A DNA stretch of 59,868 bases from a virus (Duplodnaviria; Caudoviricetes): positions 1 through 59,868 of IMG/VR virus record IMGVR_UViG_3300043811_000165; one strand, given 5' to 3'. This document shows positions 33,980-57,160 of the stretch, one piece after another. A program made the position numbers and the translations under genes. Under the pieces are notes generated by a model, which saw only the letters and a program-made list of their open reading frames with translations, did not search any database and was not told where the DNA came from. Each line of letters starts with the position of its first letter. Position 1 is the stretch's first letter.

Positions 33980-35077
33980 ATGCCGTTGGACCCACTCGCC
34001 CTATTGCACAAACAAGGAAAGGAACTGCTCAACGTCCTTTCCTCCGGCCGCGAATCCTCGGATCTTATCCCAGCGAAGGTCCTGGAGCAACACATCGCGA
34101 TTCTAGGAAAAACCGGCAGCGGTAAAAGTTACACGGCCAAAGGCATAGTCGAAACCCTCCTGGCGCAAAAACAGCGAGTGTGCGTAATCGATCCCACGGG
34201 CGTCTGGTGGGGACTTAGATCCGATTCAACCGGGAAGAAACTGGGATTTCCTATTATCGTGCTAGGAGGGGAGGGGGATCTGCTCCTGAACCCGGACCAC
34301 GGCGCCGCGATTGCGGAGATCATCGGAACCACCGACACATCCGCTATTCTCAACACCCGCACAATGACGATCAAACAGCGCACGGGCTTCTTTGCCGATT
34401 TCGCGGAAACGCTGCTGCGAAAGAACACCGGGCCTTTGACGCTGGTGATCGACGAAGCCCACCTGTTCATGCCGCAGACCCGGCCGGGAGACGTCGCCGG
34501 TACACGGATGCTCGACGCGGCGAACAACCTGGTCAGCCTCGGCCGCGGAATCGGGCTCCGGATCATCCTCATCTCCCAGCGGCCGGCGAAAGTGCACAAG
34601 GACAGTTTGACGCAGGCGGAAACACTGATCGTTATGCGCCTGATAGCCCCTCAGGATCGCAGAGCCGTCGAAGATTGGATCGGCGAGTGGGCGCAGCCCC
34701 ATGAGGGCCGGGAATTGCTGCGATCGCTCCAGTCGCTTCCTACGGGCGAAGGATGGCTTTGGGCTCCGGAGCTGGGAATTCTCGATTATGTCGAGTTCCC
34801 GCGCATCAAAACCTACGATTCGAGCCGGGCGCCCGATGGAACGAAGCGGTTGACGGAGCTGCCAGCGTTGCGGAATGCTGTGGACCGGCTGAATGTCCAG
34901 GTGATTGCGGAGCGGTTGAAAAACGTTCCCCCTCCTGGTCGGACGGACAAACGGAGGCGCAAAGACGAAGAGTTGAGGGAGGCCAATGAATCGGCCTCTT
35001 CGGGCTCTGATCCTTCGACCGATCTTCCTACCGTTCGACATGGGCAGGCTTCGGAAGGGCCGAAAAGTGGCTCCTAA
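33980..35077 (+). CDS. HerA/FtsK-superfamily P-loop ATPase; candidate genome-packaging ATPase
   Basis: Walker A GKTGSGKS, VIDPTG, Walker B LVIDEAH, GR.G and SQRPA motifs. Confidence 0.85.
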   Translation: MPLDPLALLHKQGKELLNVLSSGRESSDLIPAKVLEQHIAILGKTGSGKSYTAKGIVETLLAQKQRVCVIDPTGVWWGLRSDSTGKKLGFPIIVLGGEGDLLLNPDHGAAIAEIIGTTDTSAILNTRTMTIKQRTGFFADFAETLLRKNTGPLTLVIDEAHLFMPQTRPGDVAGTRMLDAANNLVSLGRGIGLRIILISQRPAKVHKDSLTQAETLIVMRLIAPQDRRAVEDWIGEWAQPHEGRELLRSLQSLPTGEGWLWAPELGILDYVEFPRIKTYDSSRAPDGTKRLTELPALRNAVDRLNVQVIAERLKNVPPPGRTDKRRRKDEELREANESASSGSDPSTDLPTVRHGQASEGPKSGS

Positions 35078-36356
35078 AGCCTGGTACAACGAAATAGATC
35101 CGAAGAAAGCGGCATGGCTTCGAGAACTGATCAAGCGCGGACTGATCGCGCCAGGAGACGTGGATGAACGATCAATTGCCGATGTTCGGCCCGCCGACCT
35201 TGCCGGATACACCCAATGTCACTTCTTTACCGGAATCGGCATCTGGAGCTACGCGCTCCGTCTCGCCGGGTGGCCCGACGAAAGGGAAGTCTGGACGGGC
35301 TCCTGCCCCTGCCAGCCCTTCAGCGCGGCCGGCAAAGGTGAAGCGTTCGACGACGAAAGGCATCTTTGGCCAGAGTTCTTTCGACTCATCGAGGCACGAC
35401 GACCTGTCGTATGCTTTGGCGAACAGGTTGCGTCGATCGACGGACTCGCTTGGCTCGACCTTGTTCAATCTGACCTGGACCGTGCGGATTACACCTGCGG
35501 GGCGGTCGATCTGTGCGCTGCGGGCGTCGGAGCCCCTCACCGAAGGCAGCGTCTTTATTGGGTGGCCGACACCGCGATCGTCGGGAGGCGGTCCAGATTT
35601 CGCAATCGAGCAGCGGCAGGAGAGCGGGGGATTGAGTCTTCAAACGCCTGTGGCACTGTCGGGTTGGCCCACGAGTCGCGCGGAGGACGCGGAATCGTCG
35701 GGAATGAGGCACAGCCGGGGAGTGGCCGACACGTTGACGGCCGTGGCTGCGTTGACGGGATGGGGAACGCCGGCGGCGCGGGATTGGAAGTCGGGGGACG
35801 CAAGTCAGGAGACGCTGGACAAGAACGCGCGGCCGTTGACCGAACTGGCGAAGCTGGCAGGATGGCCAACCGCAACTGCGACGGACGGGCAGCGGGGCGG
35901 GGAGCAGACGGAGGAGATGAGCGGTTCGTCCCTGACACAGTGGGCGAAGAATGGCGGGATGGGGAACGCCGAAAGCATCGGACGGGGAAGGCGGGCGAGA
36001 TTGAGCGGATGGGTGACTCCGAAGAAAGCCGACGGGGAGCAGGGCAGCGAATCGATGATGCGGGGCAACCTGACGCTGTTGGGCGAGGCCCGGTTAACGG
36101 CTTTTGGCGAGACTCCGATTGGGTACTTACTCGGCCCCAACGGGTGGGAGATCGTCCCGGCTTGCGGCCAGTTGAGCCCGGCTCATTCCCGCTGGCTAAT
36201 GGGTCTTCCGAGCGCGTGGGACGATTGCGGGGTTACGGCGATGGCATCGTTGCGCAGTGCGCGCAAGCGTTCATCGAAGCATACCTGTCCCTCACCGCCA
36301 CAACGGACCATGCACCGGAGCCGGAATGTAGCCCACAAGGTACGACAACAGAATGA
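35067..36356 (+). CDS. C5 cytosine DNA methyltransferase
   Basis: FFTGIG (I), SCPCQPFS (IV), FGEQV (VI), HRRQRLY (VIII), LRGYGDGIV (X). Confidence 0.9.
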   Translation: MAPKAWYNEIDPKKAAWLRELIKRGLIAPGDVDERSIADVRPADLAGYTQCHFFTGIGIWSYALRLAGWPDEREVWTGSCPCQPFSAAGKGEAFDDERHLWPEFFRLIEARRPVVCFGEQVASIDGLAWLDLVQSDLDRADYTCGAVDLCAAGVGAPHRRQRLYWVADTAIVGRRSRFRNRAAAGERGIESSNACGTVGLAHESRGGRGIVGNEAQPGSGRHVDGRGCVDGMGNAGGAGLEVGGRKSGDAGQERAAVDRTGEAGRMANRNCDGRAAGRGADGGDERFVPDTVGEEWRDGERRKHRTGKAGEIERMGDSEESRRGAGQRIDDAGQPDAVGRGPVNGFWRDSDWVLTRPQRVGDRPGLRPVEPGSFPLANGSSERVGRLRGYGDGIVAQCAQAFIEAYLSLTATTDHAPEPECSPQGTTTE

Positions 36357-36501
36357 TCAGGAAAATCACGGCGACGATCACCCGAACGATCTGACCGATG
36401 GGAACGGGCATTGGGATCATGTCGATGATCCACCAGACCACTGTGAAAATCAGGCCGATGATCAGGAGCGTGACGAGCATTCCAATAAGACCTGTGAGCA
36501 T
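36292..36501 (-). CDS. Small two-TM membrane protein (holin-like)
   Basis: 69 aa, two hydrophobic helices. Confidence 0.7.
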   Translation of the reverse strand: MLTGLIGMLVTLLIIGLIFTVVWWIIDMIPMPVPIGQIVRVIVAVIFLIILLSYLVGYIPAPVHGPLWR

Positions 36502-36545
36502 GGAAGCACCTTCAGGTAGTGAGATCCTCGAAACGGCTTTTTGTT

Positions 36546-36686
36546 TCGGCCTCCGTCGGCTTCCTGGCTTCGATCAGCAGACAGCGCCCGACCAGGAGAT
36601 GGTTTTTCTACCCGCGAAGATCAACACCTTTCTCCTGGTCGAACGGGTATAGCGGGCGCAGAAACACCAAAGCCCGATGAGGCTAA
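36546..36686. mobile_element. Empty ~140 bp repeat-pair unit 2
   Basis: Same architecture and related spacer as unit 1. Confidence 0.8.
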
Positions 36687-38014: not shown

Positions 38015-39973
38015 TTATTCGCACGGATACAACTTCCTGCCTACCAGATACGCAACCACCTGAGCCGGTCCTGCTTCGAACACGTAAACCGGATTCAACC
38101 CGCTTCCATGAATCGGTTCATTGCCGACAAACACCCAACCTCCCGTTGGCGATCCAGACACCGCAATTCCCATCGCCTGTGTTGGGAACGCCGGATCGGG
38201 TATCAGCGTCTGAGACAAAGCCCACGTGTTGCCGGTGAGCGTGTAAACGTAAACCTGGCCGTTGCCTGCGGTCGATCCTGAAAACGGTGCCTGGTAGGCC
38301 CCGATGATCAACGTCGAATCATCGCCCGCGATCGAATTCGGAGCCGCGAAAAACTCAGCTCCCAGTCCGGCGAACGGATGAAGCAGCGTTTGCTGCAACG
38401 TCCAGACCCCGCCCGCGAGTTTATAAACGAGAGCCTCTTCCGGTCCAAACCCGCCCGTTGCGATCGCGCCAATCACGGCCGTCAAGCCGGTCGATGTCAT
38501 GTATCCACCGTAGCCTGAGAAGGTGAATCCGGCCGGTGGTGAAATTTCCTGCTCTTGAACCCACGCGCCAGCGACCAATTGGAAGAAATACGCGCGAGTT
38601 CCGCCCGCGGCGTTGCCAGTAACGATCATCCAGTTCCCGCCCGAATAAATGTTCAGTCCAAATCCGGCGGTCGTGTCCGCAGCGTTGAATTTCTGTTGCA
38701 GCGTCCAGGTACCTGCGACCAGCGTATAGTAGTACACGTTTCCGGGTTGCCCGACGGCTCCACTCGTGGAACGGGTCGCACCGATCAGCAGATTGCCGCT
38801 TGGCGAGATAGCGATAAACGCGCCGAAGAAATCCGTAACCGCGCCATCGGTTCCCTGTATCGTTTGGGCAAGTGAGAAACTTCCAGCCGCGAGATTGTAG
38901 ACGTAAACTGAGCCGCGGGTTGCGGCCGTCGACGGTTCGCCAACGAACAGTTTCGTGCCATCCGGAGAAAATGCAATCGCCGTGCCGTAGGAATCGACTC
39001 CGGACGCGGCAGGCTTGTTCAGGGCCTGTAGGAACGTCCAGACGCCGTTGATGTTCTGGTAAATGTCCACCTGCCCGATTTCTGAGCCCGTATTCGTGCG
39101 ATCATAGGCGGCGGCGTAATTACCCGCAGCGGCGACCGCGACGAACTGGCCGTAATCCGTGCTGGCCGGGCCGGTCGACAGCAGCTCCTGCGTCTGAGTC
39201 AACGCGCCGGTGCCGAAGCCATGGTAGTCGATCTGGATCTGGCTGTCCTTCTTGTAAAACAGCGGTGGAACGATCGCGCCATTCTCGTAAGGTGTTCCCG
39301 GCGCGCCGTTCAGATAAATATCGACGACCGGGATGTTGGAAATTCCCACCGTGAATTGGTCATAAATTGTGATTGCGCAGACGGGCGACTTGATCACGAC
39401 GAACAGACCGGAGGAGTTTTTGGAGAACAGCAGGACCTGGTACAGTTCGAAATCGTAATTGTCGACCTTCGTGTAGCTCGAAACGAAGCCGATGCTTTGG
39501 CTGGGGAGCGTCACGTCCGCGACGTACGTATAGGATTTCGGCTGAAATTTGTATGAGGGCCGGTGGGATGCTCCCGCGCCTTTGAGCCGACGGACCCCTT
39601 GAAACGCAATTTGCGCCGCGATCGGATTCGACGGGAGCAGGACGCCGTACAGATCGAAACCGATTTGCCCGGTCTCCGGATACCACTCCTCGGGTGCGAT
39701 CGCCAGCTCGGGGCTGTTTGCCGATTGCACCGGGTTCGAGGATTGGTAGACGCCTTGCGAGGCGCGCATGACTTGGAATTGGCCGGTGGGATTGGGGTTC
39801 AGGATGCGGTTCAGTCCGACGATGCGGCGCGCGGCGAAGTCTCCGTAACCACCTTGAATGTAGATCTGCTGATTCTGATAATTGTTCCCGTTTGTCAGGT
39901 TTCCTGCGTTGAAGGCGTAGGTGTAGGGTAAGTCGTAGTAGCCTGGCGGGGGTGTGTAGGGCCGGGTTTTCAT
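38015..39973 (-). CDS. Putative virion spike protein with FG-GAP-like beta-propeller insertion
   Basis: Repeats of (F/Y)G..(V/I)A..D..L.(I/V)G...G.VYVY....W...Q.L. Confidence 0.75.
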   Translation of the reverse strand: MKTRPYTPPPGYYDLPYTYAFNAGNLTNGNNYQNQQIYIQGGYGDFAARRIVGLNRILNPNPTGQFQVMRASQGVYQSSNPVQSANSPELAIAPEEWYPETGQIGFDLYGVLLPSNPIAAQIAFQGVRRLKGAGASHRPSYKFQPKSYTYVADVTLPSQSIGFVSSYTKVDNYDFELYQVLLFSKNSSGLFVVIKSPVCAITIYDQFTVGISNIPVVDIYLNGAPGTPYENGAIVPPLFYKKDSQIQIDYHGFGTGALTQTQELLSTGPASTDYGQFVAVAAAGNYAAAYDRTNTGSEIGQVDIYQNINGVWTFLQALNKPAASGVDSYGTAIAFSPDGTKLFVGEPSTAATRGSVYVYNLAAGSFSLAQTIQGTDGAVTDFFGAFIAISPSGNLLIGATRSTSGAVGQPGNVYYYTLVAGTWTLQQKFNAADTTAGFGLNIYSGGNWMIVTGNAAGGTRAYFFQLVAGAWVQEQEISPPAGFTFSGYGGYMTSTGLTAVIGAIATGGFGPEEALVYKLAGGVWTLQQTLLHPFAGLGAEFFAAPNSIAGDDSTLIIGAYQAPFSGSTAGNGQVYVYTLTGNTWALSQTLIPDPAFPTQAMGIAVSGSPTGGWVFVGNEPIHGSGLNPVYVFEAGPAQVVAYLVGRKLYPCE

Positions 39974-40451: not shown

Positions 40452-40531
40452 TCTGGGCTCACAAAACATCTCCTGGTCGAACGCTCCAGCATGGAAGCGG
40501 AGCCCCGATTCGACTGAGGCTAAAGAATTGT

Positions 40532-42157: not shown

Positions 42158-42649
42158 TTAAGCCGGCTCCCCTCCCCACAGGATAAGCTGAATTTGCCTG
42201 TCACTGCTCGAAGTGGTCGCAATCTCGACATGCAAAAGACCAGGCGAGGGAACGACCAGCAAGCAGGAAAGCAACTGCTGCTGCGACCAGGTCGGCTCCG
42301 CGATCAGTTCCGCCGTCTCCGGCTGCTTCGTGACAAATTCGGAAATCAGCGGAACATCGGTACAGGTTTCGCGGACCTGAAATGAATCCGTGCCTGACGA
42401 ATCGCCGGTGAACGTGTAGCCCCAGATTGCGGAGCCGGGTTTCATATAGACCTGATATTCGTAGGAGTCGAAGGCAGGGATTTGCTGCGACTGCGTGTCG
42501 TTCGGGACACACCAGGATTTGGAGCGGTAGGCTTTCAATCGTCGGAGAGCGTTGTACTGCTCGATGGCCAGTGCGCTGAATTTCAAATTGCACCGCTGCA
42601 AGGTTTTGAGCACGAAGCCGTCGAGGATGGGGTAGGGTAGTGCGCTCAT
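42158..42649 (-). CDS. Putative small capsid-like protein
   Basis: Beta-rich; in the structural operon; ends IQLILWGGEP. Confidence 0.6.
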   Translation of the reverse strand: MSALPYPILDGFVLKTLQRCNLKFSALAIEQYNALRRLKAYRSKSWCVPNDTQSQQIPAFDSYEYQVYMKPGSAIWGYTFTGDSSGTDSFQVRETCTDVPLISEFVTKQPETAELIAEPTWSQQQLLSCLLVVPSPGLLHVEIATTSSSDRQIQLILWGGEPA

Positions 42650-43428: not shown

Positions 43429-43878
43429 TCATTGCGCCCGGCTCGCAATCTTATAAAGTTTGATCCCTTTGAACACAATTTGCAACGGGTTTGTTGCATC
43501 CGACAGATCCGCAATGTCGATCAGGATCTTGGAGCCTGCGGGAAACAGGTGAGCTGGCGAAATCACAGTGGGATCGTTCGAGGATTGCGACAGGGCGCCG
43601 GAGTTGATAAAGCCGCTTTCGAGCTGGTAACCGGTCGAATCGGCAAGCCGGAACTGGAACGAGCCGGTGAACAGCGAAATATACATGCCGAACAGGTAGA
43701 AATCGGCGTCCGTCTGGATCGACACTGTGTCGCCGTCGATTTCCTGAAGGGCCGTTAGTTGGCCGTTGGGCGGGTTGTAGACATAGTCGAAGGGTTTGGG
43801 CTCAGTTGATGCGTTCGGATCGAGCGCGAGGCCCTGGAAGTAGTCTGGTGCGAATTGGTTTATGGGGTATGTGCTCAT
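43429..43878 (-). CDS. Putative small single-jelly-roll-like capsid protein
   Basis: 149 aa beta-rich protein downstream of the candidate major capsid gene. Confidence 0.6.
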   Translation of the reverse strand: MSTYPINQFAPDYFQGLALDPNASTEPKPFDYVYNPPNGQLTALQEIDGDTVSIQTDADFYLFGMYISLFTGSFQFRLADSTGYQLESGFINSGALSQSSNDPTVISPAHLFPAGSKILIDIADLSDATNPLQIVFKGIKLYKIASRAQ

Positions 43879-43935: not shown

Positions 43936-44127
43936 CTATTTCACCTTGCGCACCAGCGCCTTGATCTTTCTGAGCGTTGACGCTGCGCTCGCCTTTCGCC
44001 GCGGGTTCTTCCGTTTGGCAGTCTTGCGCCTGGCCGATGCCCGCCGCGTCGTCCGCCGTTTCGAATTCTTTCTCTTTTTCGGCGCGTATTTTTTCCGCCA
44101 CGCCGGTGAGCCGAATTTCAGAGCCAT
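43936..44127 (-). CDS. Highly basic protamine-like protein (possible DNA-condensing core protein)
   Basis: KKYAPKKRKNSKRRTTRRASARRKTAKRKNPRRK; RBS GGAG. Confidence 0.7.
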   Translation of the reverse strand: MALKFGSPAWRKKYAPKKRKNSKRRTTRRASARRKTAKRKNPRRKASAASTLRKIKALVRKVK

Positions 44128-44336: not shown

Positions 44337-44342
44337 ATTCGT

Positions 44343-45041
44343 TTACTGCACGCCGCGAGCGAACAGACCGACCAGTTCTACCAGCAGAATCGCGCCGACA
44401 CCCGAAGAACTGAGCACCTGCGACGTGTTCGAACCGGTCAGATAGGCCATGAAGCTCATTTGATTGGCGATCACCAGTTTCACCGACAGCATGTTCATCG
44501 ACTGACGGCCGGGTAGACCGTTGGTGTAGAACGACTCCGCAGTTTTGGTGGTGTAGCCGGAAATCCCCATCCCCGAAGAGAAGTGGCGGATGTTCGCGCG
44601 CTGGTAGTTCTTGTCTCCCAGCCAGAAGTCGAATGCCCACGAATCGAGCAGCGTTTGCAGATCCGAGCGTAAAATACCCTCGGACCAGTTGAACCGGATC
44701 CCGAACACCGAAAAAGCCTTCGGCGCGTCGAGTTTCCCGTTCTGCGTCATGTTGGTCTGGGCAAGCGTCTTGCCCGAACCGTTTTCGACGTTGGTGAACC
44801 ACGAAGCGTTGCCGCCCTGGTTACCGGTGATCGATCCACTCGCAGTGTAGGTCACCGTGTCGTACAGCGGGGTGTCCTCGACGTCGAGCTGATTCGAAAT
44901 GTAAATCTGACCGCGAAAACTATTGATGATGAACTGCTGTTGGGCAGTGATCGCGGCTTGAGCGTTCGCCTGCATGTTCGCGGCGACGTTCTGAATTGCG
45001 GCTTGCGTGGCCTGTTGGGCCATTGCTGCGGATAACGACAT
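44343..45041 (-). CDS. Candidate major capsid protein (jelly-roll type)
   Basis: 232 aa beta-rich protein with PLYDT..F..TNM..G.L pattern; helical N-terminus; hairpin downstream; has a paralog. Confidence 0.6.
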   Translation of the reverse strand: MSLSAAMAQQATQAAIQNVAANMQANAQAAITAQQQFIINSFRGQIYISNQLDVEDTPLYDTVTYTASGSITGNQGGNASWFTNVENGSGKTLAQTNMTQNGKLDAPKAFSVFGIRFNWSEGILRSDLQTLLDSWAFDFWLGDKNYQRANIRHFSSGMGISGYTTKTAESFYTNGLPGRQSMNMLSVKLVIANQMSFMAYLTGSNTSQVLSSSGVGAILLVELVGLFARGVQ

Positions 45042-46262: not shown

Positions 46263-46264
46263 TG

Positions 46265-47853: not shown

Positions 47854-48603
47854 TCAACCACCAATCCCCGGACTTGCGCCCAAATCCGCCCTCTTGGGCA
47901 ACACCTTGTACCGTCCTCCATATAGCGCCATCGACGGATCACGCGGCTTGTAGACCAGCATCGGAACGACGCCTCCCGCGTGTTCATGGCCCAGCGGATG
48001 ATAGAAGTCGACCAGTTCTTTGCCGTCCTTCTCGAACTTCTTTTTCGTCCGGTATGTCAGCTCAAGCACGGCGCCGATAATCATGTGCTCCCTGAAATCG
48101 TCTGCCTTGAAACCGTAGTTCTCAAGCAGCCGCCGTGGGATTTCCTGATCGCCGCCGCGGAAGTACATTTGGTTTCCGGCTTCGTTGAACGCGACGTAGA
48201 CCACATCGGATTTCTTCGCGCGATCCGGATCCGGAGCTTCGAGGTTGAATCGCTTGCCGCGCTCCGTCTGAATCACCATCGACGTGAGTGTTCCAGCGGT
48301 CCAAAGATTCGTGTGTACGTGGACCCGTTCGACTATTTCGAGCACTTCGTTCGGCGGCATCCCGTGGAACATTTCGTACATTGCAGCCGCTTCGCCCGCA
48401 GGGTTCTTGCTAAACAATTTTTTGAGCGCGTTGGTTGCTTTGCGCCCGGCTGCGGAGTGCGCAAGAGCAGCAGTGACCATGCCGGTACCTGGATTGCGTG
48501 TTCCAGCCGCAGTGCAGATGGCGTAGGCGGAACGGGCTGATTTGCTCTTCTTCACTTGTTTTACGCAACGCTCGAATTTGGCGGGGTTCTTTTTTGGCCT
48601 CAT
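47854..48603 (-). CDS. Hypothetical protein with (K/R)NP repeats; start codon provided by a repeat
   Basis: ATGAGGCCAAAA = MRPK; KKNP, TRNP, SKNP. Confidence 0.65.
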   Translation of the reverse strand: MRPKKNPAKFERCVKQVKKSKSARSAYAICTAAGTRNPGTGMVTAALAHSAAGRKATNALKKLFSKNPAGEAAAMYEMFHGMPPNEVLEIVERVHVHTNLWTAGTLTSMVIQTERGKRFNLEAPDPDRAKKSDVVYVAFNEAGNQMYFRGGDQEIPRRLLENYGFKADDFREHMIIGAVLELTYRTKKKFEKDGKELVDFYHPLGHEHAGGVVPMLVYKPRDPSMALYGGRYKVLPKRADLGASPGIGG

Positions 48604-48965: not shown

Positions 48966-49424
48966 CTACCTGCGGCCCTTCTTTCCAAATAGCAACCACA
49001 GAGCCGCAGCGCTGCCGCCGATCACCAGCCAATCCTCACCGGTGATCGAAGAAATGGAGCCCGTCGAAATCGCAGTCTGAACATCGGTGAAAGCCGTAGT
49101 GAACGGAGCCGTGATCGACGTGAGGGACAACTGCCCCATTCCGCCGCCGCACTTCCCGCCGCATCCGCACGAATCGCCGCATCCCAATCCCGACATCCCC
49201 GCGCCATTCCACGCGGCCATCACCGAATTGTTGGGGATCACCATGCCCGTGGGCGAACTGGGCACGAGGGAGTTCATCCCCGCCGTCGTCACCACCGGAA
49301 CCTGAGGCACAGGATATTTTCCGGCAACAAAATCCCGGAGTCCGTTTAAGGAAACCGGGGTTTGCGGAACCGGCCACGATCCCGGCACGAAGTCGCGCAA
49401 AGCGTTCATTCCGATTAGGCTCAT
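48966..49424 (-). CDS. Putative virion membrane protein
   Basis: LRDFV.G..PVPQ.PV x2; C-terminal TM + KKGRR. Confidence 0.7.
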   Translation of the reverse strand: MSLIGMNALRDFVPGSWPVPQTPVSLNGLRDFVAGKYPVPQVPVVTTAGMNSLVPSSPTGMVIPNNSVMAAWNGAGMSGLGCGDSCGCGGKCGGGMGQLSLTSITAPFTTAFTDVQTAISTGSISSITGEDWLVIGGSAAALWLLFGKKGRR

Positions 49425-49434
49425 AAAATTCCTT

Positions 49435-49770
49435 TCATTGCGTTGCACTCTGACCTTGCATGGCCTCGTACGCCACATAACCCACGGCCGCGAGCGCGCC
49501 GACTGCGACCACCGTCCCGAGTTTGCTCGTTCCGCCGACTGCCGCTTTAGAGATCTTGCGCCGCGCGCGTTTCGTTTTCTTACCGACGCGCGAGCCGGCT
49601 GTTTTCAAATCGAAAAACAGCGAAATCGCCACGTAGGAAATCCCAATCACCGCCGCCCACTCGCCCACACCCCAACTGGAGATGTCGCTTGACAGCGAAA
49701 CTTGGCCCAGATCGCCCATACCGATGAGCGGCGCGGATTGGAACGGCGTGATGAGTTGCGCGTCGATCAT
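49435..49770 (-). CDS. Putative virion membrane protein (2 TM)
   Basis: ATGA overlap; two TMs with a basic loop. Confidence 0.65.
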   Translation of the reverse strand: MIDAQLITPFQSAPLIGMGDLGQVSLSSDISSWGVGEWAAVIGISYVAISLFFDLKTAGSRVGKKTKRARRKISKAAVGGTSKLGTVVAVGALAAVGYVAYEAMQGQSATQ

Positions 49771-50120
49771 TTCTTGATCAAATCCTTTAGCAAAAAGAAA
49801 CCGCCTACCGCAGCCGCAATCCAAATCAACGCAGTCGGAATTCCGGTAGCACTCGATATCCCGGACGCCAAACCGCCCGTGACTCCGGCCGTCAATCCTC
49901 CAGCCGCGGCGCCAGCGGTCGACCCCACAACCTGCGCGCCGCCGACGATCAAACCTTTGGTCGCTGTCACGTACAGCGTGTTCGTCGGGTCCGCGCAACC
50001 GAGATAATCCTGGCAGGCCTGTGACAGATAAACGTAATCGAGCAACCCGCAGGGACTCGCGCCGCACGTCGGATCCGTGGCAGGACCGGGCCCGAGTTGC
50101 CCCATTCCGACCAGGCTCAT
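49767..50120 (-). CDS. Putative virion membrane protein
   Basis: GMGQ N-terminus; C-terminal TM. Confidence 0.7.
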   Translation of the reverse strand: MSLVGMGQLGPGPATDPTCGASPCGLLDYVYLSQACQDYLGCADPTNTLYVTATKGLIVGGAQVVGSTAGAAAGGLTAGVTGGLASGISSATGIPTALIWIAAAVGGFFLLKDLIKK

Positions 50121-50341
50121 GCGCTCCTCCGCACGTCATCGTAGGTTTTTATGTTATCGGCGATTTTTGCCCGTGCTTCATGCTCCGAAAGATGATGGCA
50201 ATTAGGACATTCGGCGGAAAGTATCTTGGTACCGTGATATGGAACGGCTAAAATCCATTTCTCGTTTATGGCTTTGCTGACGGCCGCTTTTTCCGTCAGG
50301 GCGGATAGAGTGCGCTCGCAGCGTTCACAGCGAATTGTCAT
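50117..50341 (-). CDS. Small Zn-ribbon protein
   Basis: CERC...CPNC. Confidence 0.6.
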   Translation of the reverse strand: MTIRCERCERTLSALTEKAAVSKAINEKWILAVPYHGTKILSAECPNCHHLSEHEARAKIADNIKTYDDVRRSA

Positions 50342-50739
50342 GGTTTCCTCCGCGCCTGATGGTGAAGAAACTGCATGAAATCTCCAACGATGGGAGGCGC
50401 ACCCGCAGCACGCGTCAGTTCTTCAATCGCTTCGTCGATCTTTTCAGGCGAGAAACCCTCATAGGCTTCCGGGTACGCGGATTCCGGCGTATGCGGATGG
50501 CGCGCCGCAGATCTCACCTTCGATTTTCCATTTGTGTGAGCCGTGGCCAACTGCTTGTCGAGTTCCGCGCGTTTCTTCGGGTCTTTTAAAATCGCGTACG
50601 CATCGTTCAACCGTTGGGTTTTGAGTTTGTCCGGCCGTGGCCCGTCCGGGTGACATTGGCGGACAAGCGCGGACCAAGCTGCGCGGATGACTTCGACGGG
50701 CGCTGTTCGGGAAACCTGAAGGATTTCGTAGGCGTTCAC
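50338..50739 (-). CDS. DnaJ (J-domain) protein
   Basis: NAYEILQV..IRAAW..CHPD..LNDAYAILKDPKKRAELD. Confidence 0.9.
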   Translation of the reverse strand: MNAYEILQVSRTAPVEVIRAAWSALVRQCHPDGPRPDKLKTQRLNDAYAILKDPKKRAELDKQLATAHTNGKSKVRSAARHPHTPESAYPEAYEGFSPEKIDEAIEELTRAAGAPPIVGDFMQFLHHQARRKP

Positions 50740-51107
50740 TTGTGGCCTCCGAAAACACTCGCAAGAATGAACAGCGAAACGACGGCACCGATTCCCAAGT
50801 AAAGATTGGTGTTCGGTACGCCGGGGATGATTGAGCACGTTGCACCAACCGGACACGCCGCGACGACGGCATAGCAGATCGGGTTTCCATCGGGATCTGT
50901 GCTCAGCGCATATCCCGAATCGCATCCCATATCGGAAGGAGTCGAGTAAGACGTCGGAGTCGAGCCCGTCACACAAGCGCCCGTTTGCGGATTCATCACT
51001 GTTCCAGAAGGACACGGTCCAACGAAGGAGGGCGAAGCGATCTGCACGCCGGACGTGTTGATTGTTACTCCTGTGTCCGTCGAATACTGCCCCATGCCCA
51101 TCAGCAT
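50736..51107 (-). CDS. Cys-rich putative virion membrane protein
   Basis: GMGQ N-terminus; C-terminal TM. Confidence 0.7.
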   Translation of the reverse strand: MLMGMGQYSTDTGVTINTSGVQIASPSFVGPCPSGTVMNPQTGACVTGSTPTSYSTPSDMGCDSGYALSTDPDGNPICYAVVAACPVGATCSIIPGVPNTNLYLGIGAVVSLFILASVFGGHK

Positions 51108-51493
51108 GAGGCCTCCGTGAATTGGAGCACGTCGCCGCGTTTCGTTCCTGTGGCTCTGGCGGTCCCTGCCGGAAGTTCAAGGGCCGATGCCGCCGTGAAC
51201 AAACTCCATTCGGAATTTGGTTGAAGTGTCAATGTTGCGAGCACAACGCGGTCAGCATCCAAGAACAAAACATCGATCGAAAACTTCATGTCAACCGTGT
51301 GAACCGAATTGCACGGGGTGATGTGCAGGCCTTCGCCGATTGGTAGCGATTCGCGATTCAGCAAGCCGGTTCTCCGGTCCAACATCGTTACGGCTGTTTT
51401 GACCTGGTTCGCAAGCGTGGTTCCGCGCGTCAGGTTGAACGCCGAGGTAATCCCCGTTGCGCCTGCGAGTCCGAGATGTTGTGTTGCGATCAT
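51101..51493 (-). CDS. DUF192 family protein
   Basis: RRTGLLNR..GEGL..PCNSVHT..MKFSIDVLFLD..ALELPAG. Confidence 0.85.
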   Translation of the reverse strand: MIATQHLGLAGATGITSAFNLTRGTTLANQVKTAVTMLDRRTGLLNRESLPIGEGLHITPCNSVHTVDMKFSIDVLFLDADRVVLATLTLQPNSEWSLFTAASALELPAGTARATGTKRGDVLQFTEASC

Positions 51494-51653
51494 CACTTCT
51501 TTTTTAAAATTGCAATTGCCGCGATTCCGCCGGCCAAAATCCAAAACCATGTTGCATCGGGACAAACTGTTTGACCTTTCGAGGTTCCACAAGCGACCTG
51601 AGGAGAAAACACTGCCTCCCAGGAGTAGCAGCCGGAGAGATCACCCATTTGTT

Positions 51654-51791
51654 TTGGCCTCCTTCGGCAGAGTGGCTTCGACCGATTTTAGAGCGCCCGA
51701 CCAGGAGAGATCTTTTCTACCCGCGAAGTGCGAAACCCACTCCTGGTCGAACGGTAGAGCGTACGCGGACATCGATGCACTTTGAGGCCAA
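51654..51791. mobile_element. Empty ~140 bp repeat-pair unit 3
   Basis: Same architecture and spacer. Confidence 0.8.
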
Positions 51792-51795
51792 CCCA

Positions 51796-52374
51796 TTACC
51801 AACCTCCATGAATCATGCTTGCCGGAATTCCGGGATAATGCCCGAGACCACTGAGCCCGGTTACTCCAGCCGCGGTGTTGAGTAGTTCCACAAACTGAGC
51901 CGGGGCCATCAGCACGTAGCTTCGATTCGCGCCGGTAGCTCCAGCGGCCGATAGCATGGCTTCAACCTGATCGCCGGTCAATGGCGTAACGTTCGGCAGT
52001 TTAGCGTAGTAATACGCCCACTGGTCAATATTCAGTTGCGGCGGATTATTTGGAGTCGCAGTCTGTTGTGCGAGTTGAATTGCCATCGCCAATCCACCAC
52101 TGCTGACATCGGCCTGTCCGCCGTATTCAGTAGTCGCAGGCGTGGCTGAGGTTTGCACCGGAGGATTCGAAGTAAGAGGGGCCGTGCAAATCCCTCCTAC
52201 CATCGTCGACGGCGCAACACAGGGCTGAATAGTGCCTGTCGAAACTGGAGCTGGTGTCGGAGCAGCAGCCGCGAACGAAAATAGATTCGCAAACCAGCCC
52301 TGCTCATACCCGTACCACGCAAGCGCACCGGCTCCGGCGAGTATGATCAGCGAGGTGTAGTCTTGCTGCGCCAT
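51796..52374 (-). CDS. N-terminal TM protein, paralog of 52725..53351
   Basis: IDQWAYYY vs LDNWAYYW; NR....A.QFV. Confidence 0.7.
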   Translation of the reverse strand: MAQQDYTSLIILAGAGALAWYGYEQGWFANLFSFAAAAPTPAPVSTGTIQPCVAPSTMVGGICTAPLTSNPPVQTSATPATTEYGGQADVSSGGLAMAIQLAQQTATPNNPPQLNIDQWAYYYAKLPNVTPLTGDQVEAMLSAAGATGANRSYVLMAPAQFVELLNTAAGVTGLSGLGHYPGIPASMIHGGW

Positions 52375-52737
52375 TTATTGCCCCCCCCCTACTGGGTTCA
52401 ACATCAGCGGGCTGCAATCGGCATTCTTTGGACAAGGAAACTTCGGGTCCAATATTACACCAGCGCCGCCAGTGGTAGGAAGCGGCGATAATACTCCGGG
52501 CGGTGGCACTCCGTTGATCGGAGGACCATAAAGCGGAGGTAACACTGCGGGGGGCTGAGCCGGGGTCAAGACGGAGATCGGAACCATATTACCGCTTCCG
52601 ATGGGCGCGACCGTTGGAACAACAGCAGGCGCGGTTGCGGCGGTTCCAAACCAGTTGTTCTGGTAGCCGTAGTACAGCACGGCGCCGATTCCCGCAATCC
52701 ACAAAATTGGTGTCCAGTCTTTCATCAGTTCACCCAA
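52375..52737 (-). CDS. N-terminal TM Pro-rich protein
   Basis: YGYQNNWF anchor similar to neighbours. Confidence 0.65.
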   Translation of the reverse strand: MGELMKDWTPILWIAGIGAVLYYGYQNNWFGTAATAPAVVPTVAPIGSGNMVPISVLTPAQPPAVLPPLYGPPINGVPPPGVLSPLPTTGGAGVILDPKFPCPKNADCSPLMLNPVGGGQ

Positions 52738-53351
52738 TCGCTATACTGCGAGCTGTAATCGTAAAAGGACTGAAGCCCGGCCGTTCCGGATGCGGGAGTT
52801 CCGCTCGGAGTTGTCTGGTTGATCCAGGCCACGAACTGCTCCGCGCTCACCGCCGCGTTGCGATTGCCTCCGTTCAGCGAAACAATCTGATCCATCTGCG
52901 AAGGTGCGATGGAATTCGGAACACCGAAACCAGCAGGCGCGCCTTCAAACGGCGTGCTGTTCTGCCAGTAGTAAGCCCAATTGTCGAGGTCCTGCGAATC
53001 GGATCCACCGGCCGCGGCTTGCATCAGTGAAATCGCTTGCTGATAGTTGGGAGCAAGACCTGCCCCTGGAGACGTAACTGGAGGAAGCGCGGCGTTTGAA
53101 TTCGAGGCGAGCCATTGCGCGCATGTCGCCGTCGAACTGGCACCCGTGGCCGGATCCACGTAGATTGCAGTGCCGGTTGGGTTCGCCTGGCAGTAAGCCA
53201 GAAGCCCGGTTGATGTGTTGAACGTGTTGGTCGAAGAGGAACCACCGAACCATTGCGCCCAGAGGCCGGAGTTCTGGAGCCACTGATAGACGAAATAGGC
53301 TGCGGCGGCCATGGCACCGTACTTGATTAATTGTTTGGTGTTTTCGTCCAT
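52725..53351 (-). CDS. N-terminal TM protein
   Basis: ATG right after a repeat RBS. Confidence 0.7.
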   Translation of the reverse strand: MDENTKQLIKYGAMAAAAYFVYQWLQNSGLWAQWFGGSSSTNTFNTSTGLLAYCQANPTGTAIYVDPATGASSTATCAQWLASNSNAALPPVTSPGAGLAPNYQQAISLMQAAAGGSDSQDLDNWAYYWQNSTPFEGAPAGFGVPNSIAPSQMDQIVSLNGGNRNAAVSAEQFVAWINQTTPSGTPASGTAGLQSFYDYSSQYSDWVN

Positions 53352-53354
53352 TAT

Positions 53355-53494
53355 TTGGCCTCCGTCGGCGGGGTAGCTTCGAGCGATTTGAGAGCGCCCG
53401 ACCAGGAGATGGGTTTTCTACCCTCGGAGAACCGCACCTTCTCCTGGTCGAACGGGAGAGCGAGCGCGTGAAAACGAATTTGCGATGAGGCCAA
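53355..53494. mobile_element. Empty ~140 bp repeat-pair unit 4
   Basis: Same architecture and spacer. Confidence 0.8.
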
Positions 53495-53499
53495 ATTAT

Positions 53500-54030
53500 T
53501 CATCGTTTCCTCGGAAGTACAACGAGTGCAAACCCCGCTAAAATTCCAGCAGCAATCAGAGGATTATCATTCAGCCACTGGTTGATCTGGCACCAGCATG
53601 AATCTCCCAAAACGGAAACCTGCACTGGCGCATTCGATTGTGTGATGTTCGGCAGCGGTTGCACGATGTTTACGGGCGTCAGAGTAACCGGCGGATTGGA
53701 TGTGGGAGGCGGCGCTGGAGTCGGAGTGATCGGCGTAGGAGCCAGAATATTGCAACCCGGAATACTCGCCTTGTAGGGTGCACACACCGGCGAAGTGCAA
53801 GGCTGCGCACCGCCGAATCCTTCCTGTCCCCAATATCCGCACCAGAAGATCGCCGCAGCATTACCCGTATCCACTCCGCACTGGAAAGGAGCGCACTGAG
53901 CCGCGGTCGCCGGAGTGTTCGCGGGATCGGGAATCGGCGTCCCGTCATACAAAAAGACCGGCCCGTAATTTGAAAACGCGCTCGCGTCGTTGCCCCAGTC
54001 GAAAGCCTGCCCGAGTCCCATCATGCTCAT
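53500..54030 (-). CDS. Putative virion membrane protein
   Basis: GLGQ N-terminus; C-terminal TM + RKR. Confidence 0.7.
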   Translation of the reverse strand: MSMMGLGQAFDWGNDASAFSNYGPVFLYDGTPIPDPANTPATAAQCAPFQCGVDTGNAAAIFWCGYWGQEGFGGAQPCTSPVCAPYKASIPGCNILAPTPITPTPAPPPTSNPPVTLTPVNIVQPLPNITQSNAPVQVSVLGDSCWCQINQWLNDNPLIAAGILAGFALVVLPRKR

Positions 54031-54752
54031 CTGCGGCCTCCGATCAAGCCGGGAAGAATCATCAGCGCGGCAATCGCGCCAACCGCAACGGCCCAGTTTG
54101 GCAGGCCGGAGATCAAATCCGAATTTGTGAGGAACGACAAATCGATTCCGCTGGTTGAACTGGTGGACGATGTCGAACCCGTGGAACTTCCCGCGTCAGA
54201 ACTACCGGCCGGGCCTGGAGGCGCAGTATTTCCGGCTGGAGGAGCGACGGTTTGAAGTTGTTTCTGCGTCGGTTGAACGGTAGGAACTGGAGGCGCAACG
54301 TAAGGCTTATCGCCGCTGGTTTCAGGAACTGCGCCGCCATATTTCGCGTTCAACATCTGGGCGAGTTGAGCGGTCGTGTATGTCGACATCGGCTGCCCGC
54401 CGGTCGTCACGTCGCTGATCGAGGGTGACGGACAATTGATCGTGACTCCCATTGCGTCGACGAACGTCAAACCGGGATTCGATTGGCAGTAGACTGCGTC
54501 CTGTCCGATGTTGATCGGAACTGCGACCAGCGCTGCCAGCGTTTGCCCTTCGAAGGAACTTGCGGGAATCGAGGCGATGTCTGCCGCGACTTCCGTATTC
54601 TGCTGTTGAATGAAGGCGGGATTGTTCAGAATTGAACAGGGGTCTTGAAGCGCTGGTGTTCCCGCTGGTGCGCAGCAGACTTGGAGTCCCGAGTCCCAGG
54701 AGCCTCCATTGGGACAGGTCTGGCCGAAACCTCGAAGCGACATTAAGCCCAT
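54027..54752 (-). CDS. Putative virion membrane protein
   Basis: GFGQ N-terminus; C-terminal TM + GGRR. Confidence 0.7.
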   Translation of the reverse strand: MGLMSLRGFGQTCPNGGSWDSGLQVCCAPAGTPALQDPCSILNNPAFIQQQNTEVAADIASIPASSFEGQTLAALVAVPINIGQDAVYCQSNPGLTFVDAMGVTINCPSPSISDVTTGGQPMSTYTTAQLAQMLNAKYGGAVPETSGDKPYVAPPVPTVQPTQKQLQTVAPPAGNTAPPGPAGSSDAGSSTGSTSSTSSTSGIDLSFLTNSDLISGLPNWAVAVGAIAALMILPGLIGGRR

Positions 54753-54755
54753 GAT

Positions 54756-54894
54756 TTGGCCTCCGTCGGCATATGGGCTTCGATCAGCAGACAGCGCCCG
54801 GCCAGGAGATGGGTTTGCTCCGCGCGAAGACGGGCACCTACTCCTGGTCGAACGGTAGAGCGGGCGCGCACATCCTCGACTACGATGAGGCTAA
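54756..54894. mobile_element. Empty ~140 bp repeat-pair unit 5
   Basis: Very similar to unit 1 at 30319. Confidence 0.8.
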
Positions 54895-55644
54895 TCAAAG
54901 GAGCACCACCAACGCGAGTAGCGCCGCGCCGATCAAAAGTTCCGTCAAATCCGGTGTGGACGTCGATAAAGTTGGGCTTGCCGTTGTCGCCGCCGATCCA
55001 CCCGGAGCCGTCGCAGACGTTGGGTCCGGTTGAACAAAAGGATCGTTCGCGATCGGATCACGCATTCCGACGAACCAGTTCCAACATACCGATCCCGATC
55101 CGGCCGCACCCCACGGAGTGTAGGTTCCATCGGCGTTCCATCCCCCCTGAGAAACCTTCCATGTGCATGCGCCTTGTTGCCGGTCCGAGATACAACGTTG
55201 ACCAGCCGCGCCGAGCTGCGCGTTGCCGCACGCCGCTTGAAGTGCTGCCCACGTGGTGTCAAACGTGTTGAGCGCCGCTGTTTGCATCGATACGTAGCGA
55301 ATCGACGAAGATGTGTAGGCCGTGACATTCTGCACGAGAATCGCATCCGCCTGGTTTGCGATCTGGGTTGCTTCGATGCACGTTTGGCCGCAACCTTTGA
55401 ACAAATTGGCGATAGCAATTCCGACTCCCACCAGTGCCGCGATCGCCGCGCCCACGACCGGCAGAGATAAACCCAAAATCGTCATTGTGGAACCGAGCGC
55501 TCCGAGAATCGAAGTGGTGGTCGTGATTCCCGTTGCAGCGATCGACGCCGCGGTGCTCACGCTCGTTGGAACAACCTGCCCCATTCCCCACGTCACGTAG
55601 GGATTGCGAGGAACGATGTGGTAGCTGTCGCGGATTGCGAGCAC
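54895..55644 (-). CDS. Putative virion membrane protein (hydrophobic N-terminal helices, Cys-rich ectodomain, C-terminal TM)
   Basis: Sequence pattern. Confidence 0.7.
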   Translation of the reverse strand: MLAIRDSYHIVPRNPYVTWGMGQVVPTSVSTAASIAATGITTTTSILGALGSTMTILGLSLPVVGAAIAALVGVGIAIANLFKGCGQTCIEATQIANQADAILVQNVTAYTSSSIRYVSMQTAALNTFDTTWAALQAACGNAQLGAAGQRCISDRQQGACTWKVSQGGWNADGTYTPWGAAGSGSVCWNWFVGMRDPIANDPFVQPDPTSATAPGGSAATTASPTLSTSTPDLTELLIGAALLALVVLL

Positions 55645-56334
55645 TTATCGTTTCCCTCCGATGAGGTTTGGCAAAATAATAATCGCCGCGATTGCCCCGA
55701 TAATCAAGGGCACATAGGGTCCGATGGAGGCAAGTCCAGCCGTCAGACTCGCGCTCGCGTTCACGGCCGTCGACGTGGTCAGTTGGCCCGTCGCCGGGTT
55801 GTAAATCAGATTCGTTCCCGCAACCTGGTATGGTCCGCCCGCCGCAGTGCGGATCAGGGAAACCGCAGAATTGCCCGTGGCCGCGATCAGTTGCGCCGTC
55901 TGTGCGGGTGTGAGCCCGGCCGCCTGCGGTGTGAGCGTCACGCTTCCACCGGTCGACACGGTGTATCCGCAGTTTGACATTTGTTGCGCGGTCATTGAAC
56001 TCAGGGGCACTGAATCACAGGAAACGTCCGGTACCGTGATGGGCGTCGTGCCGCCGCCGGTGGGCTCGGTGTAGGTGGTCGTTATTTCCGTGTCGTCTCC
56101 GCTGTCGTCCTGACCCAGTCCCATGAAGCCGTGGAAGCGCGGCATCAGCCGGGGTCGACCACAATCTGCGCCGGGCGGGCAGCCCAGACCTGGAGCGGAA
56201 TATCCCTCTCCCAGAATTCCCGCGTGATCCGGCCAGTTCAAGTCGAAGAATACGGAGATGTCGTTCGGAGTGTAGGGATCTCCTGTAAACCCCGGAGGGT
56301 AGGGCATGGAGGAGGGGACTGTTAAAATGCTCAT
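55645..56334 (-). CDS. Putative virion membrane protein
   Basis: GLGQ motif; C-terminal TM + GGKR. Confidence 0.7.
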   Translation of the reverse strand: MSILTVPSSMPYPPGFTGDPYTPNDISVFFDLNWPDHAGILGEGYSAPGLGCPPGADCGRPRLMPRFHGFMGLGQDDSGDDTEITTTYTEPTGGGTTPITVPDVSCDSVPLSSMTAQQMSNCGYTVSTGGSVTLTPQAAGLTPAQTAQLIAATGNSAVSLIRTAAGGPYQVAGTNLIYNPATGQLTTSTAVNASASLTAGLASIGPYVPLIIGAIAAIIILPNLIGGKR

Positions 56335-56337
56335 GAT

Positions 56338-56477
56338 TTGGCCTCCGTCGGCAGAGTGGCTCCGTGGAATTTGAGAGCGCCCGACCAGGAGAAGCCTTTT
56401 CTACGCGCGAAGAAAAAACTGTCTCCTGGTCGAACGTGGCAGCGGACGCGGGAACCTGGAAACTTCGATGAGGCCAA
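56338..56477. mobile_element. Empty ~140 bp repeat-pair unit 6
   Basis: Same architecture and spacer. Confidence 0.8.
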
Positions 56478-56479
56478 AA

Positions 56480-57160
56480 TCAAATGACCCTCCTATTCAA
56501 CCAGCGGATCAACCCATAAACCCCAGCGGCAATCGCCACCGGAGTCAAAGCAAGGGTCATCTTCTCAATCGGCGTCTCATACACCGGCCATTCCCGTATT
56601 CGGGTGTGCGGGCATTCCCATCCCGGATATTCGCCATGTGAAAAATCAAGCGGAATTCGCCGGCCGTCCGGACCTTCGGGATACGCGGCAACATAAATGT
56701 GCGAATACTCCCGCGGCCGGTCCTGATCCGCGGCCACCGTCACGAGCGCGCAAGGAATTCCCAAGGAGGTCAACAGGCACGCCCCATACATCGTGAACCC
56801 GTCGCAGTCCTCCACTCCCACCCCCCGGAGCGCAATCAGCATCGACTGATCGACCGGTCGGATGAAAACTTCAACGATGTCGTTTTTTCGCGGGTCCGTC
56901 GTGTCCAGGTCCTTCGCGATATCGACGTCCTGTTTAAACTTCATCGACGGCTTGATGAGTTTCCAGACCCCTGATATCGCATCGCCGTCGCGCATCGCCC
57001 GCGCCGCATCCGCCCGGATCGGTTCGGACATTGCGTCTTTACGAATGAAGCAGATTGCTTTGGCCACCGCCTGGCGAACCTGGGCGTCCGGATCGTCGGA
57101 CATGCGGTCAAAGTGGTAGGCCACTTTCACACCGAAATCGGGATGGTACGCCGTGTTCAT
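56480..57160 (-). CDS. Transglutaminase-like cysteine protease-fold protein with C-terminal TM
   Basis: EDCDG (Cys), SHIY (His), PLD (Asp) triad order; first gene of the structural operon. Confidence 0.75.
   Translation of the reverse strand: MNTAYHPDFGVKVAYHFDRMSDDPDAQVRQAVAKAICFIRKDAMSEPIRADAARAMRDGDAISGVWKLIKPSMKFKQDVDIAKDLDTTDPRKNDIVEVFIRPVDQSMLIALRGVGVEDCDGFTMYGACLLTSLGIPCALVTVAADQDRPREYSHIYVAAYPEGPDGRRIPLDFSHGEYPGWECPHTRIREWPVYETPIEKMTLALTPVAIAAGVYGLIRWLNRRVI

Follow-up and report, generated by a model that had tools for sequence, protein, structure and literature searches.

A candidate lineage of tail-less bacterial viruses with a single-jelly-roll shell protein and no conserved packaging motor

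PRD1-like viruses (Tectiviridae) are tail-less and possess an internal membrane, a virion transglycosylase, jelly-roll vertex proteins and an ATPase of the HerA/FtsK class. Sphaerolipovirus-type viruses (SH1, HHIV-2, HCIV-1, P23-77) have genomes of 17-31 kb with a conserved ATPase plus a gene block for two capsid proteins. To our knowledge, no cultured tail-less phage with a membrane reaches a genome of 44 kb, and each has a packaging ATPase; the largest one we know of is Salisaeta phage SSIP-1, whose circular genome measures 43.8 kb. Assembly of icosahedral double-stranded DNA (dsDNA) virions without a motor is known to us so far from one archaeal family. In Sulfolobus polyhedral virus 1 (SPV1; Portogloboviridae), the virion combines a single-jelly-roll shell with a lipid layer and a basic nucleoprotein coil or core, and the annotated functions include a glycosyltransferase and a methyltransferase, and no ATPase (PMC8459092). 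Reviews group P23-77, IN93, SSIP-1, SH1, SNJ1, HHIV-2 and PH1 by two upright single-barrel capsid proteins (PMC4958249, PMC6356626), state that SSIP-1 encodes two capsid protein types (PMC6356626, PMC4958249) and name a bacterium as the host of P23-77 (PMC4958249). Here we compare with these systems the IMG/VR virus record IMGVR_UViG_3300043811_000165, whose 59,868 bases form the entire record and are called the window below, and in particular its minus-strand gene module around a capsid-like protein of 232 amino acids (aa). With middling confidence, we propose that the window and its relatives represent a new lineage of tail-less, probably membrane-containing, single-jelly-roll bacterial viruses with genomes of 50-63 kb and no conserved packaging motor.

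An AlphaFold2 model of the 232-aa protein computed with 134 diverse sequences (predicted local distance difference test, pLDDT, 92.7; predicted template modelling score, pTM, 0.83) consists of an N-terminal helix (residues 2-41) followed by an eight-strand barrel (about 50-232), which gives the protein a single-jelly-roll fold. It superseded an earlier model built on just 17 close sequences, whose quality was low (pLDDT 61). The model was aligned to 48,161 representative solved chains, 39 of which gave a Z-score of at least 5. SPV1 was the top match (Z 8.3, root-mean-square deviation 4.2, 148 of 178 residues aligned); sequence identity in this alignment was 9-11%, so that the likeness is one of fold only. 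The subsequent rows were HCIV-1 (7.1), the fibre of phage 7-7-1 (7.0), HHIV-2 (6.9) and P23-77 VP17 (6.8), and P23-77 VP16 ranked tenth (Z 6.0). In a second comparison, in which the 989 best chains from Foldseek were re-aligned to the model, capsid proteins of membrane-containing icosahedral viruses took six of the first seven places (SPV1 8.2, HHIV-2 7.9, HCIV-1 7.3, SH1 7.3 and two of P23-77, the better at 7.2), the sphaerolipovirus-type proteins lying within ranks 2-7 (Z 6.9-7.9, 117-136 residues aligned). As modelled, the protein has its nearest known structures among the shell proteins of membrane-containing icosahedral viruses. The original prediction had placed a jelly-roll capsid protein here and named P23-77 VP16/VP17 and SH1/HCIV-1 for comparison. 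The fold was recovered and these proteins are among the best matches, after SPV1, although at modest Z-scores.

The gene is the best conserved one of the group. Three related genomes were compared with the window: G001 (58,096 bases, with direct terminal repeats), which is collinear with the window in reverse at 65-82% DNA identity, G007 (56,849 bases, rated 100% complete) and G008 (51,750 bases, with a 97-bp terminal repeat and rated complete). The 232-aa protein is 92% identical in G001 and 73% identical in both G007 and G008, compared with 27-59% for the remaining genes shared with the latter two. A search of a clustered protein collection returned 211 homologs at E<=0.001; the 120 that were listed show 62-100% identity and, among these matches, are often found on contigs of 40-63 kb. 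Applied to 1.84 billion representatives, the family profile recovered 481 clusters at 50% identity. No family member has a Pfam assignment, PHROGs gave one weak match among 45 members, tblastn against 50,697 GenBank phage records gave none, and nothing was found on viral contigs scanned with the distant family members P0160 and P0125. The window also encodes a 254-aa paralog, for which no separate ortholog was found in G001, G007 or G008. Its N-terminus resembles a twin-arginine (Tat) export signal (Pfam TAT_signal E 0.034, below cut-off), and its gene is part of a plus-strand block at 19.8-30.3 kb, most of which is lacking in the relatives; the G+C content dips to 0.487 there.

Genes of tailed phages were searched for in several ways. 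Comparison of the 74 open reading frames (ORFs) of the window with Pfam and PHROGs revealed no terminase, portal, HK97 capsid or tail family except phrog_2666, which matched the ATPase described below. Six-frame hidden Markov model (HMM) searches of five records (the window, G001, G002, G007 and G008) with PF03237 and PF03354 (Terminase_6N, TerL_ATPase) and with PF04860 (Phage_portal) and PF05065 (Phage_capsid) were negative in all five, and the control genomes matched; for portal and HK97 capsid, absence refers to profile searches only. Likewise, no terminase, portal, HK97 capsid or tail match was obtained for the 20 G001 ORFs without a DNA match to the window, and no terminase, portal or HK97 match for 82 G008 ORFs (Pfam, PHROGs). 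No tape-measure-sized gene was found in the genome. The lack of terminase, portal, HK97 capsid and tail genes, claimed before for the window, extends to two relatives rated complete, and profiles found no HK97 capsid or terminase gene anywhere on the contig.

The capsid-like gene belongs to a module in which all plausible genes between 36683 and 57160 lie on the minus strand without interruption. This agrees with the minus-strand array of about 20 kb that had been predicted, and all six of its beta-rich ORFs are present, encoding proteins of 382, 652, 346, 163, 149 and 232 aa (Table 1). Each of the six ends in a hydrophobic strand followed by G-x-K/R/W-type residues (in the same order, ...VVYMVGKKLYPCL, ...VAYLVGRKLYPCE, ...GVFGWFYPRR, ...IQLILWGGEPA, ...QIVFKGIKLYKIASRAQ and ...LVELVGLFARGVQ), the C-terminal motif described earlier as strand-G-x-K/W. 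Among the core genes common to the window, G001, G007 and G008 are those for the 232-, 149- and 163-aa proteins, the C-domain of the 346-aa protein and the core of the 382/652-aa proteins; the 221-aa protein, the core of the protein starting at 47854, the 515-aa protein, the DnaJ-domain protein, DUF5131 and the resolvase are also shared by all four. Membrane proteins shared with G007 and G008 start at 52725, 53500, 54895 (three transmembrane segments) and 56480. The 16 metagenome loci that span 10 kb or more all show a collinear module with its order kept, and the 232- and 149-aa genes are adjacent in every one of them. Since the module is kept and collinear in the relatives, its genes are real.

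As judged from profile comparisons, the beta-rich proteins fall into two mutually unrelated families, one with the 232- and 254-aa proteins and one with the 149-aa protein, the N-domains of the 382- and 652-aa proteins and perhaps the 163-aa protein. Using hhalign, the 149-aa family was aligned with the two N-domains at probabilities of 94% and 92% over 114 columns, and with the 163-aa protein at 57% (E 1e-4), which makes the latter a possible distant paralog. The cores of the 382- and 652-aa proteins (about 260 residues) are 64-70% identical and are interrupted in different loops by unrelated inserts; the 652-aa protein is a candidate for recognising the host or occupying a vertex. From end to end, the 149-aa family is also collinear with the C-terminal half of the 382-aa core, at a non-significant probability of 1.4%, and the two share the motifs ...P-x-x-F/Y...I-D... 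and P-x-Q-I-V-x-x-G-x-K-L-Y. A profile link from the 232-aa family to the 149-, 163-, 346-, 382- and 652-aa families was rejected (probabilities <=0.5%). Profile searches against PDB sequences with the 149-aa family and the 652- and 346-aa proteins gave nothing meaningful, and for the 346-aa protein no family was matched in Pfam or PHROGs either.

A HerA/FtsK ATPase close to the module had been noted, and it is present on the plus strand as a HerA/DUF87 match. It is the sole convincing P-loop nucleoside triphosphatase (NTPase) in the six frames of the window and also matches the TrwB, AAA_10 and FtsK profiles as well as phrog_2666, which is labelled 'terminase large subunit'. The gene lies 9 kb from the capsid-like gene on the opposite strand, beside two methyltransferase-like ORFs. 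By six-frame HMM search, it occurs in three of the five records, namely the window, G001 (66% identity, plus a second partial copy) and G002 (64%); G006 encodes a 583-aa relative with 28% identity. In G007 and G008 no ATPase was detected by protein search, tblastn or six-frame DUF87 and FtsK profiles, and no GK[ST] motif in P-loop context was seen in any frame. Pfam and PHROG scans of the 82 G008 ORFs showed no NTPase; as the choice of these ORFs was greedy and fell on the wrong strand in places, the frame-independent tests had been added. Among the seven metagenome loci with about 9-10 kb of relevant flank, two carry the ATPase, and these correspond to G001 and G002, while in three of the remaining loci the resolvase follows the structural module and there is no ATPase.

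More than 1259 proteins make up the family of the ATPase; most measure 540-580 aa (around 560 aa), identity is 55-75%, and some are encoded in bacterial genomes. Its sole relative in the 50,697 GenBank phage records is the 'hera helicase' of a tailed phage equipped with a terminase, portal and tape measure of its own. Because the gene is missing from complete relatives that share the capsid module, it appears to be an accessory gene and not the packaging enzyme of the group; the role of lineage packaging enzyme given to it in the original prediction could not be upheld. Where present, it may assist replication, recombination, counter-defence or packaging, the last of these seeming to us unlikely, though the chance is appreciable. 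The G001 gene (G001:C1:39063-40816; also L005 and L007) contains an in-frame TGA, and a 124-aa fragment repeats the Walker A region, which hints that an accessory gene is decaying or was recently duplicated.

To search for membrane proteins, a crude hydropathy scan was applied to the module region, where it flagged 12 of 33 ORFs. The flagged segments of the 382-, 163- and 232-aa proteins are probably beta strands and not transmembrane segments; that of the 232-aa protein falls within the last strand of the AlphaFold2 model. Five more ORFs have hydrophobic ends below the hydropathy threshold, and about nine to fourteen products are predicted to have a membrane segment. The earlier figure of more than ten transmembrane-anchored proteins is fair when taken as about ten, if imprecise. 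From some ten membrane proteins in the conserved module we infer a lipid bilayer beneath the shell. The basic protein that had been described as well is the 63-aa product, a candidate for condensing the DNA. A second protein rich in basic residues, of 221 aa, is 37-58% identical in G001, G007 and G008 and missing from just one of the 16 large metagenome loci; its composition makes it a candidate link between DNA and membrane.

Several genes point to the type of host. The last 44 aa of the SLT transglycosylase are 52% identical to the end of the product of 48966-49478, and G008 encodes M15 and SLT_3 cell-wall hydrolases. As SLT and M15 cell-wall hydrolases are encoded, the host should be a bacterium. 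Together with DUF3310, DUF5131 and a deoxynucleoside monophosphate (dNMP) phosphatase, the endolysin-type M15 peptidase and SLT make up a set of phage-type accessory genes. The sole match to the capsid-like protein among 185,579 species genomes is a partial homolog (60% identity, residues 37-104) on L019, a 3.3-kb contig of a Ca. Sulfotelmatobacter metagenome-assembled genome. This gives a weak hint of a host among the Acidobacteriota; naming the host from a single contig of this size was rejected as too weak.

How does this locus compare with the described systems? SPV1, whose shell proteins VP4 and VP10 are single jelly rolls, provides the best solved match to the 232-aa protein (Z 8.3 and 8.2), and a GT2 glycosyltransferase and a methyltransferase are found in the window as well. 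In contrast to SPV1, with its archaeal host and 20-kb genome, the present group has a bacterial host, genomes of 50-63 kb and, in some members, a HerA-like ATPase. Sequence similarity is lacking, and no homolog of the nucleoprotein VP1 was identified, no dedicated search for VP1 having been made. With the sphaerolipovirus-type viruses the group shares the single-jelly-roll fold (Z 6.9-7.9) and presumably, from its genes alone, the tail-less build with an internal membrane, but its ATPase is neither conserved nor located in the capsid gene block. The neighbouring 149-aa protein, a possible partner capsid protein, has no profile similarity to the 232-aa family. With Tectiviridae the group has in common, presumably, the tail-less build with an internal membrane, and further a transglycosylase, a HerA/FtsK-class ATPase in some members and a match of the 232-aa model to the PRD1 vertex protein P5 (Z 5.3). 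Unlike in Tectiviridae, there are no inverted terminal repeats in the window and direct repeats in the relatives, neither a protein-primed nor any other polymerase family was matched in Pfam or PHROGs, and the genome is four times larger. Among the proteins scanned, none matched the Pfam families of the double-jelly-roll capsid proteins P2 and P3, although the 382/652-aa core may hold two domains, the second without statistical significance.

SSIP-1 came up in a search of BFVD with the 232-aa model. The top match is an unnamed 211-aa protein (E 4e-4, probability 1.0, template modelling score 0.45/0.48), and at rank 33 stands a 256-aa protein with the next accession; both lengths equal those of the adjacent SSIP-1 structural proteins gp46 and gp47. 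Among 39 SSIP-1 proteins compared with the 232-aa family profile, gp46 and gp47 ranked first and second, with non-significant E-values of 0.042 and 0.41. The SSIP-1 genome differs in being smaller, in having no other gene in common with the window apart from the resolvase, and in encoding a structural protein with a Walker A motif, gp40. A pairwise match of 47854-49032 to SSIP-1 gp53 (E 2e-4, tiny database) was not reproduced by the domain profile and was dropped.

On these grounds we suggest the following virion. The 232-aa protein would form a shell over an internal membrane vesicle carrying about ten viral membrane proteins, and the insert-bearing 382- and 652-aa proteins might sit at the vertices and bind the host, whose cell wall would be opened by the membrane-anchored transglycosylase. 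The DNA would be condensed and neutralised by Arg/Lys-rich proteins, one of them a membrane-anchored tether. As the complete relatives lack a P-loop NTPase, the DNA would not be pumped by a conserved viral motor; it might be enclosed while shell and membrane assemble, as proposed for SPV1, or a host translocase might be borrowed for its entry.

A number of observations speak against this proposal. For the 232-aa model, Foldseek found no solved chain at E<=0.001, and its weak list mixes C1q/TNF domains with SPV1, SH1 and PRD1 P5. Z-scores of 7-8.3 are modest and lie in a range common for models without a true relative, and fibres, cement proteins and lectin-type jelly rolls appear in the same structural lists; by themselves, the structural scores prove neither common descent nor a capsid role. 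The 232-aa family profile gave no match to PDB sequences, and no sequence link to a known capsid protein was found. The BFVD matches are equated with gp46 and gp47 by length and adjacent accessions only, and hhalign of the 232-aa family with gp46 reached a probability of only 5.8%. The 63-aa basic protein is restricted to the window and G001 and is not core to the group. Finally, the genome in the window does carry an ATPase that might serve packaging here, and its absence elsewhere refers to two whole genomes plus flanks, from which a very deviant NTPase could escape.

The ATPase is central to a PRD1-like or sphaerolipovirus-like alternative, in which it would fill a preformed, membrane-lined jelly-roll capsid with DNA. 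In favour of this, the window has no other P-loop NTPase, the enzyme is of the right HerA/FtsK class and has a terminase label through phrog_2666, and SSIP-1 has a structural protein with Walker A motif in gp40. This alternative is nevertheless unlikely, though not negligible, given the complete relatives that have the same capsid module and no ATPase, the gene's presence in two of seven flanked loci, its distant position among methyltransferases on the other strand, its close kinship with a large and partly bacterial family, and the tailed phage that keeps the sole GenBank-phage relative beside a terminase and portal of its own. As regards the shell, the 232-aa protein might have an accessory function (in the shell, as cement or in receptor binding) and leave the role of major capsid protein to another product, such as the 382/652-aa proteins, whose core of about 260 aa could hold two tandem barrels in the manner of a double jelly roll. 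Tailed-phage cement proteins, fibres and TNF/C1q domains do score near the capsid matches, the 149-aa protein is a homolog of the N-domain of the 382/652-aa proteins and aligns collinearly with the C-terminal half, and the nearest named clusters in Atlas are PM2 P2 and PRD1 P3 (0.75-0.77, lead level only). On the other hand, the alignment of the second domain is non-significant, a propeller insert of 380 aa would be unusual in a major capsid protein, and no other gene comes close in conservation to that of the 232-aa protein, so that we regard this reading as quite unlikely.

The lack of a packaging enzyme, the many membrane or secreted products, the resolvase and the weak Tat-like signal on one jelly-roll paralog would also suit a non-viral, plasmid-like mobile element with surface or secreted beta-proteins and membrane proteins and no capsid. 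The phage-type accessory genes, the uniform genomes of 50-63 kb with terminal repeats and the viral shell proteins among the best fold matches leave only a slim chance for this explanation. Hardly any remains for a tailed phage so divergent that profiles miss its terminase, portal and HK97 capsid protein. Most ORFs are indeed without a family match and source collections apply the label Uroviricota, yet a terminase, being a P-loop ATPase, should show such a loop, and no GK[ST] P-loop is seen in any frame of G007 or G008; moreover, the hallmark profiles were negative in all five records with positive controls, and a gene of tape-measure size is missing.

If the proposed tail-less, motor-free lineage is real, motor-free assembly of icosahedral dsDNA virions extends to bacteria, in a group that is common in metagenomes and keeps its jelly-roll shell gene, the motor having been lost or never present. 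It would supply a set of genomes for testing the relations of single-jelly-roll shells across domains. As public collections list its contigs under tailed phages, the share of the group in environmental viromes would have been misread. More tentatively, and with doubt prevailing, the group could be the first bacterial counterpart of the portoglobovirus virion build, a large and widespread lineage, probably of soil and peat Acidobacteriota, without a virus-encoded motor and outside all current families of bacterial viruses.

Table 1. Features of the window (K+R, lysine plus arginine).
Feature	Position	Strand	Evidence
SLT lytic transglycosylase, C-terminal membrane anchor	12786..13661	+	Pfam 7.2e-21
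254-aa paralog of 232-aa protein	23623..24387	+	BLASTP 28% identity, E 3e-15
Serine recombinase (resolvase/invertase)	31852..32502	+	Pfam 1.2e-38; 52-65% identity in G001, G007, G008
HerA-like P-loop ATPase, probably accessory	33950..35077	+	DUF87/HerA 1.1e-11; solved HerA chains 7e-12
C5 cytosine DNA methyltransferase	34986..36356	+	Adjoins ATPase; Pfam 1.4e-13, phrog_363 1.6e-76
382-aa paralog of 652-aa protein, different insert of ~105 aa	36683..37831	-	N-domain homologous to 149-aa protein
652-aa protein, ~260-aa shared core and ~380-aa insert with FG-GAP repeats	38015..39973	-	FG-GAP_2 2.6e-10
346-aa protein, Pro/Gly-rich repeat N-terminus, conserved C-domain of ~220 aa	40532..41572	-	47-49% identity in G007/G008
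163-aa beta-rich core protein	42158..42649	-	39% identity in G007/G008
149-aa beta-rich core protein	43429..43878	-	55% identity in G007/G008; beside 232-aa gene
63-aa basic protein, candidate DNA-condensing core protein	43936..44127	-	44% K+R, no acidic residue
232-aa single-jelly-roll protein, candidate major capsid protein	44343..45041	-	AlphaFold2 model, conservation
221-aa protein, Arg-rich N-half (27% K+R), Gly/Ala-rich hydrophobic C-half	45094..45759	-	Composition
Glycosyltransferase (GT2) within module	46265..47602	-	Pfam 6.9e-07, phrog_1574
Core protein, ~185 C-terminal residues kept	47854..48603	-	46-49% identity in G007/G008
About ten genes, membrane-anchored or secreted products	48966..57160	-	Hydropathy, sequence, Pfam
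DnaJ-domain protein	50338-51180	-	Pfam
DUF192 protein	51101-51592	-	Pfam
515-aa core protein	57263..58810	+	27-29% identity, full length, in G007/G008

The window is nearly the whole genome of an uncultured virus group. CheckV estimated its completeness at 100%; this notwithstanding, the record is broken within a gene, because the DUF5131 gene (59268-59867, minus strand) is cut at the right edge, with profile positions 124-243 present and 1-123 missing. Neither a direct or inverted terminal repeat nor a tRNA gene was found in the 59,868 bases. Across the group, genomes measure 50-63 kb and assemblies are circular or have terminal repeats. A metagenome contig of 116,077 bases (L028 and L029) has the capsid-like gene twice, at a distance of about 58 kb, and is a head-to-tail concatemer of two units of the G001 genome, which fits a circular, concatemeric or terminally redundant genome. 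Full-text searches of the published literature (listings and abstracts) returned no description of such a virus group, which lies outside any described family found in this way, in line with the new lineage originally predicted. In Atlas, whose source collections put the label Uroviricota on the protein clusters, a search with the 515-aa protein returned unnamed viral clusters only; Pfam and PHROGs gave no family match for it.

Two sets of similar genes were seen in the minus-strand module. The paralogs at 41569-41892 and 42646-43191 have near-identical N-termini of 60 residues (78% identity) and Cys-rich tails, and each lies directly upstream of a beta-protein gene with overlapping stop and start codons (ATGA). 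The neighbouring genes at 53500-54030, 54027-54752 and 55645-56334 encode low-complexity stretches rich in Pro, Thr and Ser, and their products end with a hydrophobic segment followed by LP-x-(L-I-G-G)-[RK]-[RK], which may be a common C-terminal anchor or sorting signal.

An intergenic repeat is present in 36 copies on both strands of the window (e.g. at 8963, 30899, 33384, 44167 and 58854). It is composed of the conserved boxes TTGGCCTCA and CGTTCGACCAGGAG, which are about 38 nt apart and separated by a variable spacer. G001 has exactly nine occurrences of the second box, G007 and G008 none. The repeat gave no Rfam match and no consensus RNA fold and therefore looks like a protein-binding or promoter element. 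At its 3' end it provides AGGAG as a ribosome-binding site, and many genes owe their conserved leader, GAGGCCAAAxC-ATG, to its reverse complement. Reading through the repeat produces false N-termini ('..ASSQSG..FDQEGF') and shared '...EAKS/P' C-termini.

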